Positions 24,447 through 62,808 of a stretch of 64,000 bases of DNA are shown here, piece after piece. The DNA comes from a virus (taxonomy: Duplodnaviria > Caudoviricetes). The stretch's first letter is position 1, and each line of letters starts with the position of its first letter. The stretch covers positions 32,001 to 96,000 of the IMG/VR virus record IMGVR_UViG_3300029305_003178; one strand, 5' to 3'. The notes under the pieces were generated by a model. The model was not told the DNA's origin and did not search any database. It saw only the letters and a list, made by a program, of their open reading frames with translations. The position numbers were made by a program, and so were the translations under genes.

Positions 24447-24498
24447 TAAAAATAAATTCAGATATATATTATATAATCAGAAAGGTTAGTGATATAAT

Positions 24499-28396: not shown

Positions 28397-28484
28397 GCCG
28401 AAATACCCAAGTGGTTGAAGGGGGCGGTCTTGAAAACCGCTAGGCGGGTTAAACCGTGCGTGGGTTCAAATCCTACTTTCGGCG
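28397..28484 (+). tRNA. tRNA-Ser(UGA)
   Basis: GCCGAAA/TTTCGGC acceptor stem, GCGGT-CTTGAAA-ACCGC anticodon arm, long variable arm. Confidence 0.92.
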
Positions 28485-28570
28485 TTCTCCTTTTCATGGG
28501 AAATTTGCTGGTCTGTATATGTGGTGGTATATATTAATATATCACCACTATATACGAATTAATTCATTTT

Positions 28571-28644
28571 GGGTCTTTAGCTCAGTTGGTTAGAGCAACC
28601 GGCTCATAACCGGTCGGTCCCGGGTTCGAGTCCCTGAAGACCCA
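28571..28644 (+). tRNA. tRNA with CAU anticodon, probably Ile2 (lysidine type)
   Basis: Cloverleaf with CTCATAA loop; body resembles Firmicutes tRNA-Ile2. Confidence 0.88.
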
Positions 28645-28685
28645 TAACATTATTTTTTAATATTAACATAACATATTTCTAATTA

Positions 28686-28773
28686 GGAGATGTACTCAAG
28701 AGGCTGAAGAGGTGCCCCTGCTAAGGGTATAGGTCGTGAGAGCGGCGCGTGGGTTCAAATCCCACCATCTCCG
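28686..28773 (+). tRNA. tRNA-Ser(GCU)
   Basis: GGAGATG/CATCTCC acceptor stem, CTGCTAA loop, long variable arm. Confidence 0.92.
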
Positions 28774-28866
28774 TTTTGCATTATATAATTAAATGCAAAT
28801 GTGATAGTTTCTTCTTTGGTGTATGGAAACAATATTGATGAGGTTGCGTGAATTCCTCATCATTAT

Positions 28867-28949
28867 GCGGCTGTGGCGGAACTGGCAGACGCGCGGGACT
28901 TAAAATCCCGTTCCAGTAAGGAGTATGGGTTCGATTCCCATCAGCCGCA
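28867..28949 (+). tRNA. tRNA-Leu(UAA)
   Basis: GCGGCTG/CAGCCGC acceptor stem, CGGGA-CTTAAAA-TCCCG arm. Confidence 0.92.
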
Positions 28950-29956: not shown

Positions 29957-32218
29957 ATGGGACTAACTCTAACTAAGCAACAACGAGAAGGTTTGATATT
30001 GGCTAAATTATGGTGGCCTAATAGATATAAAAGACAAGTATTTGAAATTTCTGGTGCTGCTGGTACAGGTAAAGCGCAACCAATAACTACTAAAATTCCA
30101 ACACCGAATGGTGTTATTGAATTAGGTAAATTAAAAGTTGGTGATTATGTATTTAATAGACATGGTAAACCTGTAAAAGTATTAGGTGTATTCGATCAAG
30201 GTGAATTAGATGCATATAAAATAACATTCGATGATGGACGAAGTACGATATGCAATGATGAGCACTTATGGTCTGTATATGATTCACATAAACCTAATAA
30301 AAAAATAAAAACTCTAACTGTCAGAGATATGTTAAATAAAGGATTATTTAAAAACGATGGTACTCATAGATATCGTGTGCATATGAGTAAAGCAGTTGAA
30401 TATGATGAAAAAGAATTACCAATTGATCCATATGTCATTGGAGCATTTATAGGAAATGGTTGCTGTACTGAAAACATATTATCATTTTCATCTAATGATA
30501 TAGAAGTAGTTGATAGTATAAGTAAATTAATTGGTGCTAAAGGTTATTATAAATTACCATCAAATAATTATACGTATGTATTTTTATTGAATGATAATGA
30601 GAGAGGTCACAAGAATCGTAAATATTACCAAACAGAATCATTTTTTAGGGATGTCCCAGAATTAATAGGATATTCATATACAAAACGAATACCTAAAGAT
30701 TATTTATATTCTAGTATTGAACAGCGTTGGGCGTTGGTTCAAGGATTGTTTGATACAGATGGTTCGATATCATGTAATTCCAGATTCAATATTTCATATT
30801 CTAGCATTAATTTAGGATTGATATTAGATATTCGCGAATTATTATTTAGTTTGGGCTATGCGTCAACTATTAGTATAGATAAACGAAAAGATAAGTATAA
30901 AAAAACTGGTGCATGTTATACATTATATGTTAAAGCGGATAATCAAATTAAACCAAAATTTTTTAGATTAACTAGAAAGCACAAATTTGCAGAAATTGCT
31001 AAAGATATTAAAAAACGACATGATTATAGTTTAACTTATATTCATAACATTGAAAAATTAGATTATAAGACAAAAATGCGCTGTATATATGTAGATGACC
31101 AAGAACATCTTTATTTAACAAATGATTATATAGTAACTCATAATACAACCTTGATATATCATTTAATTGATGAATTAGGATTATCTGAACGAGATGTATT
31201 ATTCGTAGCATATATTGGTAAAGCAGCATTACAGATTACACTAAAAGGTAATTCAGCGCAGACAATACATTCTGCAATATATAATAGAATTGAAGTACCA
31301 TTAATGGAAGGTGATAAACCTGTTCTTAGTAATGGTAGACATGTTACTAGATTTGAATTTGTTAAAAAGGAAACATTAGATTATCCATATAAATTGATAG
31401 TAGTTGATGAAGCCGCAATGGTTCCAGTCAATATTGCCGAAGATTTAAAATCATTCGGTGTACCAATCATTGCATTAGGCGATAAAAATCAGTTACCACC
31501 AATATTTGGTAAATCTTATTTTCTAAATAAACCAGATATCCATTTATCTGAGGTAATGAGACAATCTGCAGATTCACCAATAATTAAATTAGGGCAATTT
31601 GCAATGCATGGTAAACCTATAAAAACTGGAGATTATGGTGATTCTAAAGTAATATATAGAAGTCAATTAACTGATGAAATGTTATTAGATGCAGATGTTA
31701 TATTATGTGGTAAAAATAATACTAGGCAAAATATAAATAATCATGTAAGAAACGATATATTAAAACGGACAAAAGATTATCCATGTATAGGAGATAAATT
31801 GCTCTGTAAGCAAAATAATTGGCAGAAATTTGTTTGTGATAATATTTATCTTGTTAATGGTATGCTGGGATATTGTACAGATGTATACTTGGACTCATTT
31901 AATGGAAAATCTTTAGATATAGATTTTATGCCAGAATTTTTATCTGATGAATATTTTAAAAAACTAAAAATAGATTATAATCATCTATTAAATCCACAAG
32001 GACTATTGACAGCAAATAAAAGAAGTTTTTATAATAAATTTGAGTATGGGTATGCAATAACAGTGCATGCCGCTCAAGGCTCGCAATATAATAATATACT
32101 AATATTTGACGAAGTTCTTGGTGCAGAAAGTTTTCATAGAAAATGGTTATATACTGCAATAACGAGAGCTAGTGAAAAATTAACGCTGGTTGTACCAGAC
32201 GAACTTAATTGGTGGTGA
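29957..32218 (+). CDS. Dda/RecD-like SF1 helicase containing an intein
   Basis: GAAGTGK|intein|TT, VVDEAAMV, GDKNQLPP, YAITVHAAQGSQY, YTAITRA. Confidence 0.9.
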   Translation: MGLTLTKQQREGLILAKLWWPNRYKRQVFEISGAAGTGKAQPITTKIPTPNGVIELGKLKVGDYVFNRHGKPVKVLGVFDQGELDAYKITFDDGRSTICNDEHLWSVYDSHKPNKKIKTLTVRDMLNKGLFKNDGTHRYRVHMSKAVEYDEKELPIDPYVIGAFIGNGCCTENILSFSSNDIEVVDSISKLIGAKGYYKLPSNNYTYVFLLNDNERGHKNRKYYQTESFFRDVPELIGYSYTKRIPKDYLYSSIEQRWALVQGLFDTDGSISCNSRFNISYSSINLGLILDIRELLFSLGYASTISIDKRKDKYKKTGACYTLYVKADNQIKPKFFRLTRKHKFAEIAKDIKKRHDYSLTYIHNIEKLDYKTKMRCIYVDDQEHLYLTNDYIVTHNTTLIYHLIDELGLSERDVLFVAYIGKAALQITLKGNSAQTIHSAIYNRIEVPLMEGDKPVLSNGRHVTRFEFVKKETLDYPYKLIVVDEAAMVPVNIAEDLKSFGVPIIALGDKNQLPPIFGKSYFLNKPDIHLSEVMRQSADSPIIKLGQFAMHGKPIKTGDYGDSKVIYRSQLTDEMLLDADVILCGKNNTRQNINNHVRNDILKRTKDYPCIGDKLLCKQNNWQKFVCDNIYLVNGMLGYCTDVYLDSFNGKSLDIDFMPEFLSDEYFKKLKIDYNHLLNPQGLLTANKRSFYNKFEYGYAITVHAAQGSQYNNILIFDEVLGAESFHRKWLYTAITRASEKLTLVVPDELNWW
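30074..31144 (+). mobile_element. intein (357 aa) with LAGLIDADG endonuclease, Ala1/WCT class 3-type
   Basis: AQP start within Walker A; ICNDEHLW; GAFIGNG and GLFDTDG; MRCIYVD; IVTHN|T. Confidence 0.9.
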
Positions 32219-33613: not shown

Positions 33614-33755
33614 ATAGTAAACTTATAATACACATTATTTAAAAACAATGAATTTCGCTCAAAGTTTTTAAAGACTACCTTTATAAAAGTTCTCCCCTTA
33701 AGTTAAATGTGTCAGAATAGTTCTCCAAGAACATAAAGTATTATAAGTTTATTAT
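33614..33755 (+). ncRNA. candidate structured RNA or structured 3' UTR
   Basis: 18-bp closing stem (one G.U pair), internal hairpins, followed by a terminator at 33759..33810. Confidence 0.4.
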
Positions 33756-33913
33756 ATAGCATGGAAGTATATTCGACTGTCACTCGATATACTTCCATGT
33801 TTATTTTTTTATTATATTTTTTATACGAGTATATACTGGGTATAAATATTATTTTAAAATTATTTTAACAATTATATGAAATATAATCTATAAAATGAAA
33901 GGATGTGAATACG

Positions 33914-36304: not shown

Positions 36305-36381
36305 GAATAAATATATATTATATATGAGATAGAATAAAATATTCTATCTCATATATTTTATTATAAAAGGAAGTGTAAACA

Positions 36382-40577: not shown

Positions 40578-41789
40578 TTATTCCATATAGTCTAATTTAT
40601 CAAAAATCTCTCTAATATCAACTCTACCTTTAAATACTCTAATACTGATGTAATTAGTCATCCATGTGAATATTCTACTAATATTAGAATTTTTATTAAT
40701 ATTTAAATATTCATTATTAATAAAGTCTTCTAATACATCAATATCTTTTTGAATTTCTTTTTTAACTCTTGGATCTAAATTTGGATCATTGATTTCTTTT
40801 TTAAGTTTGTGCAACTGTGCTGCAATTCTTGCTGATGTATGTGGATGAGGGTCAAATGCACCAATAAGTATTCTAAATAATACTTTATTGAAATCATTAT
40901 ACCAGTTAAGTACAGGTATGCTGTTAATTAATTTATTCATACCCACACCTTCCATTTTTTCAAATTTATTTAATGCTGTAGATAAAGCTGGGCCATATCC
41001 ATACGCTGTAGCGAAACTATCGGAATATTTTTCATCGGTATAGCCGAAAATATTTCCGAAAGATATAAGACTTATTAACTGTTCAGGCTTCATCAGATAT
41101 TCTATTAAATTATTATAGTTAATTACTTGTAATGACTTAAAGAATATATCAATTTCTTGAATAATATCCATAGTAATAGTTAAAAACTTTTTAGCTCCCG
41201 GACTTTCATCAAACCCACGCTCAATAGATTTATTTATTTCACTATATAATACAGGAAATTTACATACATCTAATAACATTTGTACTAAATTTTTACTTAA
41301 GAAATTAAGCGGGGATGCATACATATTATGACCAACTTCATGTAAAATGATGGCAAGTAATTCTTCTGCATTTAACTCAGCATGTCTAATTAATCCGATA
41401 TCGACATTTACACCAAATATCATACCAGTACTGTCTACACGATTTTTACTAACTTTTGGTCTAAAGAAATTAAATGCCATAGGGAATGTAAATGCATTAT
41501 CTTGAATTCTGGCGAATACACCGAATGGTAATGCTGTATATAGACATAAATAAAATTTTTCTAATTTAAACATATCCGCGAAAAGTTTTTCAACTTTTTG
41601 TACATGTTGAGAATTAGATATATTTTTTAATTTATTATCATATTTAATTTTACCAGCTGATGTATATGTCCATTCATTAATCTGATTGATAATTATTTCT
41701 AATTCTTTTTCGATTTCTTTTAATTGTTTTGTTTTACCATAATAAGCTTCATTAACAAAGCTTAAATTACTATAATCTATAAGAAACAT
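40578..41789 (-). CDS. HExxH zinc metalloprotease-like late protein
   Basis: ILHEVGH, EKYSDSFATAYGYG, HPHT; late promoter at 41821..41832. Confidence 0.7.
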   Translation of the reverse strand: MFLIDYSNLSFVNEAYYGKTKQLKEIEKELEIIINQINEWTYTSAGKIKYDNKLKNISNSQHVQKVEKLFADMFKLEKFYLCLYTALPFGVFARIQDNAFTFPMAFNFFRPKVSKNRVDSTGMIFGVNVDIGLIRHAELNAEELLAIILHEVGHNMYASPLNFLSKNLVQMLLDVCKFPVLYSEINKSIERGFDESPGAKKFLTITMDIIQEIDIFFKSLQVINYNNLIEYLMKPEQLISLISFGNIFGYTDEKYSDSFATAYGYGPALSTALNKFEKMEGVGMNKLINSIPVLNWYNDFNKVLFRILIGAFDPHPHTSARIAAQLHKLKKEINDPNLDPRVKKEIQKDIDVLEDFINNEYLNINKNSNISRIFTWMTNYISIRVFKGRVDIREIFDKLDYME

Positions 41790-43782: not shown

Positions 43783-43873
43783 CAAAATACGCTTACACAA
43801 TGTAAGCGTATTTTTATTTTAGTTTTCATTTATATATTATAGTATTAATAAAATTGCTTAAGGGGGTTATAAT

Positions 43874-44227: not shown

Positions 44228-44294
44228 ACCACATTATAATAAAATATTCAGTATAACAAATATGTAAATTCAAAAATTATATGAGGTGATAATC

Positions 44295-44447
44295 ATGAAT
44301 AATGAAGAACTTAATATCGTAACAGAAGTAGGAGTATTTGGTGAACTTGATATCAATGACCCTACTAAGAAAAAAGTCAAATCTAAAGAAGAAATTGACG
44401 CAATGATTCAGGAAGCAATCATTGAAAATTCTAATATAACTAGATAA
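44295..44447 (+). CDS. 50-aa acidic protein missing from the ORF track
   Basis: Late promoter at 44255..44266, GAGGTGA RBS, MNNEELNIVTEVGVFGELD...ENSNITR*. Confidence 0.65.
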   Translation: MNNEELNIVTEVGVFGELDINDPTKKKVKSKEEIDAMIQEAIIENSNITR

Positions 44448-44456
44448 CAACACCTT

Positions 44457-44646
44457 ATTGGTTAAATGAATAAGAACATCATCTTTTTACATATAGTAGT
44501 TACATTTCAATAACCTTACAGTAAATCATAGTAAGTTATCTCCATAAATAATACATTGCCTTGATAAAACATAAGCCTAACAAACAGCAATGGTTATTGA
44601 AATTTTGTACACCTCCTTTCTTTCACATATGATGTTCTTATTCATT
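44457..44646 (+). ncRNA. candidate late sRNA (6S-like rod with anti-SD bulge)
   Basis: AACA-N6-TA at 44446..44457; 18-bp perfect and 12-bp perfect nested stems; CACCTCCTTTCT in the bubble. Confidence 0.55.
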
Positions 44647-44730
44647 ATATTTTATAAATAATTTTAAATATATATTATATAGGTGTAATAATAGATAATT
44701 CAATTATTACAATAGAAAGGTTGTGCTAAT

Positions 44731-45849
44731 ATGTTAAAAGTATGCGTGATTGGTGTAGGTAACTGCGGCTCTCAAATTGCTGAATTGGCTAAAACAAAAT
44801 ATAATATTGCAGGTTTAGCATTAAATAGCTCTCAGAAAGACCTCATCAATATTAAAGCTATTCCTAAATTAGTATTAGGCGATAATTTAGGAAGTGGTAA
44901 GAATAGAGAAGAAGCAAAACGATTTGTAAAAGCTCAGATTGTAAATCTTCTTAGTCAAGAGAACTTTGTAGAATTTCTTAAAGATAATGATGTTGTATTT
45001 GTAGCATCATCTATCGGTGGTGGTACTGGTTCTGGCATGTCACCTATGCTCGTAGATATTTTATCTAGAAAATACCATAATAAAAGATTTGTATTAATAG
45101 AAGTATATCCTCCTCTTAGAGAATCTATTGCTGCTCAACAGAATAGTATTGAGTATCTTAAAGAGGTTAGAGAAAATATACCTAATGCTATTTACATGGC
45201 ATATGACAATGATAGAAGATCCGATCTTCCTACATCTGAAATGATGAAAGAGATTAATGAAGAAATCGTTGATCATATGGCTATTATCAGAGGTGATTAT
45301 CTGTATCCTACACCTTATAATAGCATTGATGAAAAGGATATGATTGCTCTGCTTAAAACACCTGGTAGATTAGCAGTATTTGAATTACCAAATATTAAAG
45401 AAAAAGATGTTGATAAAGAAACCATCGAAGATAAACTTATCAATGTTATTAAAAACAAATCTACTAATGTTGAGTTAGATAGAGATAAAATCATTAAACA
45501 GATAGGTGTTATTACAAATCTGAATTCTAAACTTGATAAACAGTTCTCTATTGCATTGACAGAACTGAAAGGATTAGTTGGTGAACCGGTAGAAGCATTT
45601 GAACATATCTACATCGGTAGAGATGAAGAAGAAAATAAAGTAGCTGTAATTTTAACAGGTTTGTCTGTTCCTGATGACAGATTAGTTAAAATTACTCAGA
45701 GAATTACCGAAGGATTGGATGATATGGGTAAAACAAAATCTAATTCTGTATTGGATGAGATGTCAATCGAATCTATTAAAGAATTAAGAAATAATTCAAT
45801 TGAATCTTCTAATGATTTAGATTTTGACGATATCTTCGGTAAGTATTAA
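44731..45849 (+). CDS. tubulin/FtsZ-family GTPase (PhuZ/TubZ-like)
   Basis: IGVGNCG, GSGK, GGGTGSG signature, IDEKD T7-like loop. Confidence 0.9.
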   Translation: MLKVCVIGVGNCGSQIAELAKTKYNIAGLALNSSQKDLINIKAIPKLVLGDNLGSGKNREEAKRFVKAQIVNLLSQENFVEFLKDNDVVFVASSIGGGTGSGMSPMLVDILSRKYHNKRFVLIEVYPPLRESIAAQQNSIEYLKEVRENIPNAIYMAYDNDRRSDLPTSEMMKEINEEIVDHMAIIRGDYLYPTPYNSIDEKDMIALLKTPGRLAVFELPNIKEKDVDKETIEDKLINVIKNKSTNVELDRDKIIKQIGVITNLNSKLDKQFSIALTELKGLVGEPVEAFEHIYIGRDEEENKVAVILTGLSVPDDRLVKITQRITEGLDDMGKTKSNSVLDEMSIESIKELRNNSIESSNDLDFDDIFGKY

Positions 45850-62764: not shown

Positions 62765-62808
62765 GAGAAAGTAGGAGACAGAAATCTCCTACTTTCTTTT
62801 TTTTTTTA

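Follow-up and report, generated by a model that had tools for sequence, protein, structure and literature searches.

A conserved structured RNA element of a 227-kb phage displays an exact copy of the 16S rRNA 3′ tail

We analysed 64,000 nucleotides (nt) of DNA from an uncultured jumbo phage (the window; positions 32,001 to 96,000 of IMG/VR record IMGVR_UViG_3300029305_003178, a genome of 227,229 bp and 29% G+C) and found a conserved structured RNA element between orf50, which encodes a 50-amino-acid (aa) acidic protein, and phuZ, a tubulin/PhuZ-family gene at 44731-45849, directly downstream of the element. As established by computation, the element displays an exact copy of the 16S ribosomal RNA (rRNA) 3′ tail together with a second CUCC motif, and we describe its existence, conservation, covariation, strand bias, predicted accessibility and motif uniqueness, and the promoter and terminator grammar around it. 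Judging from the sequence and from predicted folds, the interval is most likely a plus-strand structured RNA domain of 163-184 nt. The best explanation, which we regard as an evenly balanced proposition, is that this RNA occupies a 3′ untranslated region (UTR) and the terminator slot of its transcription unit, and would pair with ribosome-binding sites (RBSs) through anti-Shine-Dalgarno (anti-SD) motifs.

The element is built on two nested inverted repeats (Table 1). The arms of the closing stem, P1, are 18 bp long, 100% complementary and separated by 146 nt; those of the inner stem, P2, pair over 12 bp without a mismatch. Between the 3′ arms of P1 and P2 lies the 12-mer CACCTCCTTTCT (44610-44621). 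An earlier note, made by a model from the letters of this DNA, had pointed to both repeats and to the 12-mer, and inverted-repeat detection and a motif scan recovered all three in the same places. The interval had also been described as free of open reading frames (ORFs), and we found no ORF of at least 25 aa in 44454-44730. Of the two apical hairpins that had been read there, CTTAC/GTAAG and CATTGC/GCAATG, neither is kept in the relatives described below, and GCAATG (44587-44592) shares its last G with P2.

Such a structure is rare in this genome. Perfect intergenic inverted repeats of at least 14 bp with arms 50-260 nt apart occur twice in the 227 kb, as the P1 repeat and at 33618-33751. The exact 12-mer is present once in the window, where the chance expectation is 0.14 for copies with at most one mismatch. 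Compared with dinucleotide shuffles, the plus strand of the element folds with z = -4.9 (0 of 200 shuffles were as good) and the minus strand with z = -3.9.

Table 1 Features of the element, its flanking genes and promoters, and the second rod (window coordinates)
Feature	Positions	Strand	Remarks
Second rod, unrelated in sequence	33614-33755	+	18-bp closing stem with one plus-strand G·U, inner hairpins, exposed UUCUCCCC and GUUCUCCAAGAAC
Late promoter of orf50, AACA-N6-TA	44255-44266	+	40 nt before the start codon; predicted transcription start site A44266
orf50, 50-aa acidic protein	44295-44447	+	Homologues 81-90% identical in three element-bearing relatives
Conserved non-coding tail AACACCTnnTTGGTT, orf50 stop to P1	44449-44463	+	13 of 15 positions invariant in four lineages; second CACCU
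P1 5′ arm, closing stem	44465-44482	+	18 pairs; two compensatory changes, one G·U in two relatives
J1/2, 5′ side of internal loop	44483-44503	+	13-21 nt across lineages, unconserved
P2 5′ arm, inner stem	44504-44515	+	Relatives' arms differ (AATCCAAAC; CCAGACA), pairing retained
Variable apical domain, 70-80 nt	44516-44591	+	Holds invariant TTATCTCC at 44536-44543
P2 3′ arm	44592-44603	+	Inverted-repeat detection, four-lineage pairing
Invariant ACACCTCCTTTCT	44609-44621	+	In 3′ side of internal loop (44604-44628); 12 bases equal the 16S rRNA 3′ tail implied by the phage RBS consensus
P1 3′ arm	44629-44646	+	Inverted-repeat detection, four-lineage pairing
U-rich tract after P1, likely transcript 3′ end	44647-44665	+	Relatives: TTTTTAT or TTTTGTAT directly after P1
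Early (virion RNA polymerase type) promoter of phuZ, AAATATATATTAT-N6-G(+1)	44666-44685	+	Exact AR9 early match at 44666-44678, G(+1) 44685; invariant in relatives; outside the element

Relatives were found by PhuZ and orf50 protein searches of metagenomes. The conservation in related phages that the earlier note had envisaged was borne out: a homologous element stands at the same locus in three metagenomic relatives (L010, L129 and L127, with L128 identical to L127), with compensatory changes in P1 and P2, so that it is seen in four metagenome assemblies besides the window's IMG/VR record and can be compared across four distinct sequences (window, L010, L129 and L127). PhuZ is 74-76% identical in these relatives. 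The four lineages are well separated, the third-codon identity of the flanking genes being 51-68% in every pair. Four-way alignments are invariant in the tail that follows the orf50 stop (AACACCT..TTGGTT), in most of both P1 arms, in the apical (G)TTATCTCC, in the 13-nt ACACCTCCTTTCT and in the downstream early promoter, and the remaining sequence of the element has diverged about as far as silent sites. A GenBank metagenome assembly of identical gene order has a 238-nt gap at the place of the element. Mini-ORFs of 8-18 aa and 6-15 aa (minus and plus strands) were considered as a coding explanation and rejected, their length and sequence varying among relatives and their RBS/start spacing being improper.

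Beyond this group the element was not found. It is absent from 31 PhuZ-based IMG/VR loci (PhuZ identity ≤66%), and among distant relatives in that identity range L011/L017, L018, L130, L024, L026 and L030 have a plain hairpin and T-run in the same slot, while the slot of L014 has no hairpin and nothing else. Exact-pattern scans of IMG/VR, JGI metagenomes and GTDB genomes (with the 18-mer arm, the anti-SD plus the arm, and the anti-SD plus the early promoter) returned unrelated RBS-type matches only, and the 13-mer occurs in the genomes of five complete relatives only as one-mismatch copies, all of them true RBSs, with no orphan copy. Since the element is confined to one close clade and distant relatives carry plain terminators, it appears to be an innovation of a small clade that arose in, or from, the terminator position.

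The stems keep their pairing as their sequence changes. Across lineages P1 measures 15-18 bp and P2 9-13 bp. In P1, 94% of alignment cells are paired, two pairs have changed on both sides (A-U to U-A and U-A to C-G) and one pair is G·U in two relatives. The P2 arms differ from lineage to lineage (ATTTCAATAACC; AATCCAAAC(T); TTGGTT..CCAGACA) yet always pair with their partner, with exchanges that include U-A to C-G and U-A to A-U. MAFFT misaligns the P2 arms of the four sequences; MAFFT/RNAalifold recovered P1 and P2 and left the apical 70-80 nt branched, without a consensus fold. The internal loop has an unconserved 5′ side of 13-21 nt and a 3′ side of 16-25 nt that holds the 13-mer. Both ACACCUCCUUUCU and UUAUCUCC are unvarying in the four lineages and predicted to be single-stranded: in partition-function folds the probability of being unpaired was 0.73-0.86 for the 12-mer and 0.62-0.88 for the apical motif, compared with 0.43-0.49 for the whole RNA. 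The predicted display of the anti-SD 12-mer in a bubble, as first read from the window, holds in all four lineages.

On its 3′ side, the internal loop reproduces without a change the final 12 nt of Firmicutes-type 16S rRNA (CACCUCCUUUCU). Allowing up to two mismatches, AGAAAGGAGGTG occurs about 40 times in the genome, nearly always 5-8 nt before an ATG and a long ORF. Because these copies precede genes, the tail of the host ribosome must read CACCUCCUUUCU and the phage relies on long Shine-Dalgarno (SD) sequences. The sole perfect 12/12 copy of AGAAAGGAGGTG in 227 kb is the complement of the element's 12-mer, and it points away from the neighbouring genes. Two other places in the genome recall these motifs. 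A palindromic hairpin at window positions 62766-62797, AGAAAGTAGGAGA-cagaaa-TCTCCTACTTTCT, has arms that resemble SD and anti-SD and is probably a bidirectional terminator. AGAAAGGAGGAT, at genome position 114377 beyond the window and on the minus strand, stands before an ATG whose ORF runs for only 11 codons, and may be another strong RBS without a real gene.

The transcriptional setting of the element can be read from promoter motifs. Bacillus phage AR9 has early promoters of the form AAATATATATTAT-(6N)-G(+1) and late promoters of the form AACA-(6N)-TA/G (PMC5312081). The motifs of the present phage, which encodes RNA polymerase (RNAP) beta-like fragments, are those of AR9, although BLAST of the region, of PhuZ and of one large protein against cultured phages gave no DNA or protein match. 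Upstream of genes, no word is more enriched than the early motif. The late motif is overrepresented between genes, with a peak 30-59 nt ahead of start codons, and has the refined consensus aAACA-(A/T-rich N6)-TAAT, so the late-type class that the earlier note had presumed does exist here. Sites of this grammar include 44666-44685, 43828-43840, 36309-36324 and 24460-24475 of the window. The first of these sits past the element, which indicates that phuZ is transcribed from downstream of it. The second is an early-type promoter before the upstream LPD28 gene and follows a canonical terminator at 43784-43814, and together these positions give the usual layout of gene, hairpin terminator with T-run, promoter and gene. 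In this layout the element occupies the terminator slot of the (LPD28-)orf50 unit, and a terminator scan gave no other candidate between orf50 and phuZ.

The promoter proposed for the element itself did not stand up as well. An AACA-N6-TA motif is indeed present at 44446-44457, but none of the three relatives keeps its AACA, all having AATA instead, and its C-rich spacer sets it apart from the late promoters of this genome. A transcription start near 44457, as suggested in the earlier note, is thus unconserved and fits the late consensus poorly, whereas the conserved late promoter lies further upstream, 35-43 nt before the orf50 homologue in 8/8 relatives examined. With that promoter, about 190 nt away, driving orf50, the rod is most simply a 3′-UTR/terminator domain of the orf50 mRNA and not a separate gene. 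We accordingly place the rod, on promoter and terminator grammar only, in the putative 3′ UTR of the orf50 mRNA. The tail after the orf50 stop also fits AACA-N6-TG (44449-44460), a match that is invariant and of a form permitted in AR9; the genes of this phage are not preceded by this variant, and an independent late small RNA (sRNA) might conceivably start at G44460.

Two observations concern the start of the orf50 unit. The SD of orf50, ATGAGGTGAT (44281-44290), is invariant in the four element-bearing genomes; in terms of RBS type, element bearers have AUGAGGUGAU, and L130 and L017, which are without the element, have an RBS of the GAAAGGAUG / GAAAGGATG type. A link between the RBS type of orf50 and the element is only suggestive, since the difference stands for a single evolutionary event. 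All four close relatives share a conserved non-coding block, (CT)ACATTATAATAAAATA(T)T at 44228-44254, which contains a TATAAT and lies between the LPD28 stop and the late promoter of orf50. The motif GGAACATAGAAA recurs upstream of orf50 homologues in L013, L014, L018 and L130 and at genome positions 1215, 109817 and 164152, and looks like a strong late-promoter variant common to the phage group.

From these elements a working scheme can be drawn, in which transcription, processing, pairing partners and the effect on translation are what we infer. Transcripts carrying orf50 would start at the late promoter and, early in infection, at the LPD28 promoter. The long-range helices P1 and P2 would keep the large internal loop open and so expose the 16S-tail copy. 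The apical domain would leave another C/U-rich motif, UUAUCUCC, unpaired, and just 5′ of P1 there is a third, CACCU. These anti-SD motifs could then base-pair with RBSs, in cis on their own mRNA or in trans on further mRNAs of phage or host, and such pairing, in competition with the 30S subunit, would dampen or time translation. P1 and the U-tract would end the transcript and protect it. By analogy with described regulators, trans-acting anti-SD pairing is the most plausible mechanism and our leading hypothesis.

Several results weigh against this scheme. Strong SDs are the rule among the phage's own genes, which an unselective anti-SD RNA would therefore strike too, and duplex predictions gave no specific target, the best predicted partners being simply the strongest SDs. 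Three modes of action were tried and rejected. A switch between early and late classes by SD strength is too small (medians -11.8 and -12.9 kcal/mol, late slightly stronger, p = 0.015); pairing of the 12-mer in cis with the orf50 SD is not predicted; and blocking of the phuZ RBS in a read-through RNA is predicted in only one of the four relatives. The P1 covariation score is reached by 64/500 shuffles of the four sequences, and formal covariation is weak because there are only four sequences and P1 is mostly invariant. As an 18-bp stem around 146 nt, P1 is also unusual for a terminator, the canonical terminators of this genome having loops of 3-8 nt, and it was not called by the terminator scan. 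Finally, all four sequences reach a lower absolute minimum free energy (MFE) on the minus strand, which we attribute to the G/U-rich composition of that strand. A phage-encoded bS21 was considered as a partner, and the gene is absent from the phage.

Described RNAs offer both parallels and differences. In Firmicutes, the C-rich sRNAs RoxS and RsaE pair their C-rich loops with SD regions (PMC5419742, PMC8216469, PMC6158497). Like these sRNAs and the C-rich loops of Staphylococcus aureus RNAIII, the element is structured, carries several exposed C/U motifs per RNA and belongs with SD-reliant hosts; the exposed motifs of RoxS/RsaE pair with G-rich target SDs, and those of the element are conserved and predicted to be single-stranded. 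It has no sequence or covariance-model similarity to RoxS/RsaE, however, and where these use a short CCCC or UCCC motif, the element holds a full 12-13-nt copy of the 16S tail in an internal loop closed by an 18-bp stem. It further differs in being phage-encoded and apparently embedded in a 3′ UTR/terminator.

A second parallel is the icaR mRNA of S. aureus, whose 3′-UTR anti-SD (UCCCCUG) pairs with its own 5′ SD (PMC3868564); an interaction between 5′ and 3′ UTRs is also described for B. subtilis hbs (PMC5737220). The element resembles icaR in that a short mRNA of a Firmicutes-type system carries an anti-SD motif in its presumed 3′ UTR. It differs in that the 12-mer is not predicted to pair with the SD of orf50, and in that the pairing predicted for the tail is short (5-8 bp): in MFE folds the orf50 SD (AGGUG) pairs with the CACCU tail over 8+5 bp in the window and 5+4 bp in L010, not in L129 or L127, and without covariation. 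The element matches no described RNA family and, by its likely mechanism, would be a variant of anti-SD or C-rich regulatory RNAs, novel in its full-length 16S-tail copy, its closing-stem rod, its 3′-UTR/terminator position and its being encoded by a phage.

The position of the element invites a simpler account, in which the orf50 unit simply ends in an elaborate terminator that also stabilises the RNA as a 3′ structure, and the C/U motifs have no pairing function. The element fills the exact slot where L017, L018, L130, L024, L026 and L030 have a plain hairpin and T-run, and a U-tract follows P1 (UUUUU(A)U or UUUUGU in the relatives, AUAUUUUAU in the window) with no other terminator before the phuZ promoter. 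The intrinsic terminators of AR9-like jumbo phages (PMC5312081) likewise stand, as a stem and U-rich tract, between the final gene of one unit and the early promoter that comes directly afterwards; the stem of the element differs in enclosing 146 structured nt with invariant motifs. A terminator has no need of such an insert, of an invariant 13-nt 16S-tail motif, of an invariant apical UUAUCUCC or of an invariant 5′ tail, and we consider this account unlikely.

A second rod bears on the same point. Its place is the 3′ UTR of a plus-strand gene for a 178-aa protein (Table 1), with a separate terminator of canonical form behind it at 33761-33800, so such rods are evidently more than terminators. 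The two rods are alike in architecture, not in sequence. In L131, a relative from the L010 sample, the second rod is kept with a closing stem of completely different sequence, a nested second stem and a CUCCCC motif, and a partial contig of a third relative shows CUCCCC(U)UUAAG there. Taking both rods together, we put forward, tentatively and with more doubt than belief, that an RNA of an AR9-like, gut-type jumbo-phage clade mimics the free 3′ tail of host 16S rRNA as an SD competitor or decoy, and that the rods belong to an undescribed class of 3′-UTR RNAs acting on translation initiation.

The mimicry might instead be aimed at a protein. The RNA would then imitate the (pre-)16S 3′ end, with its helix, short linker, CACCUCCUUUCU and long processing-stem strand, and would draw off a protein, of host or phage origin, with specificity for the 16S tail, for instance a defence-system nuclease that targets ribosomes, or a factor in maturation or assembly. 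Such a role would agree with the 12-nt identity to the 16S tail, invariant in four lineages and predicted to be kept single-stranded between two helices, and with the conservation of P1 in sequence beyond its pairing, which would suit recognition by a protein or by RNase III. However, no protein emerged as a candidate, a bS21 gene is absent from the phage, and the bases 5′ of CACC (A, or UA) are unlike the GAU of 16S rRNA. This protein decoy, a matter of pure inference, seems to us quite improbable.

Pairing with RBSs, the explanation we prefer, requires the plus strand, and several lines of sequence and folding evidence favour that strand as the functional RNA. Every wobble pair in P1 and P2 (one common to L010 and L129, two in L127) is G·U on the plus strand and an A·C mismatch on the minus strand, and the plus-strand folding z-score is the more extreme in all four sequences (plus/minus: -6.9/-5.0, -3.2/-2.7, -4.7/-3.0 and -5.0/-3.5). 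Only on the plus strand does P1 have a U-rich tract behind it. Between 41884 and 55558 the plus strand holds every gene, promoter and terminator; the closest gene on the minus strand, 2.6 kb off, has its end at 41789, and no early or late promoter motif on the minus strand adjoins the element. With stems that covary and G·U pairs confined to one strand, the structured plus-strand RNA predicted from the window alone is supported.

These observations make it very unlikely that the functional product is a minus-strand RNA, whose perfect 12-nt SD without a start codon would dock 30S subunits as a ribosome sponge, act as a stabiliser or lead to a tiny peptide. That strand does carry the best SD in the genome, AGAAAGGAGGTG, folds well too, and in the window and L010 has an ATG 10-11 nt past the GGAG of the second motif; the candidate peptides nevertheless vary in length and sequence among relatives. 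No ATG, GTG or TTG stands 0-13 nt after the SD-like 12-mer, in agreement with the lack of a well-spaced minus-strand ATG remarked on at first reading. A stabilising role would recall STAB-SD, through which cry mRNAs are stabilised from within their 5′ UTR (reviewed in PMC4113751): it too is an SD without a start codon, and the minus strand offers a perfect one. STAB-SD, however, lies in the 5′ UTR of an mRNA and works on its own strand, whereas the element has no nearby minus-strand gene or promoter and its pairing favours the plus strand.

The earlier note had likened the element to 6S RNA, as a decoy that would sequester the host RNAP holoenzyme. It is alike in size (about 180 nt) and in outline, with a closing stem, a large internal loop and a distal helix, and a phage with RNAP beta-like genes and AR9-type promoters could afford to shut off the host polymerase. 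The analogy goes no further than this outline. Rfam cmscan gave no 6S match (RF00013 and related models) in the region at E ≤ 10, in three relatives at E ≤ 1 or in the whole window at the gathering threshold; the apical half is branched and unconserved, as is the sequence of the 5′ side of the bubble, and what the loop conserves is an anti-SD, a motif without a role in 6S, and not an open-promoter mimic. A 6S-like function is highly improbable. More generally, Rfam searches of the window and relatives by E-value and gathering thresholds gave only chance matches and four tRNAs; the window has four clustered tRNA genes on the plus strand at 28397-28949.

An element acting as DNA, either a miniature transposon or a protein-binding or centromere-like site by the tubulin gene, would account for terminal inverted repeats that match perfectly over 18 bp and for their place just before a tubulin/PhuZ-family gene, but is hardly credible for a sequence that is single-copy in the 227-kb genome, has no second copy in IMG/VR or the other collections searched, lacks a target-site duplication (flanks GGTTA / ATATT), holds the same locus in all four genomes and has P2 arms that change yet stay complementary, which fits RNA pairing over a protein-recognised site.

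To our knowledge, the regulatory RNAs of phages, and above all of jumbo phages, have barely been explored. Among the transcripts published for jumbo phages are sRNAs whose function is not known (for example, PMC11512511). The element offers a conserved and easily synthesised RNA in which an exact copy of the 16S tail is held open between covarying helices and matches the SDs of the phage's own genes, and it yields a testable hypothesis, that a phage tunes or hijacks translation initiation at the RNA level. Even if it were only a terminator, it would be an unusual one. Phages are known to act on SD sites by protein routes, as with T4 RegB, which cleaves SD sequences. If our explanation is true, the element would add an RNA route to these, and long closing-stem rods in 3′ UTRs would be a recurring device in this phage group.

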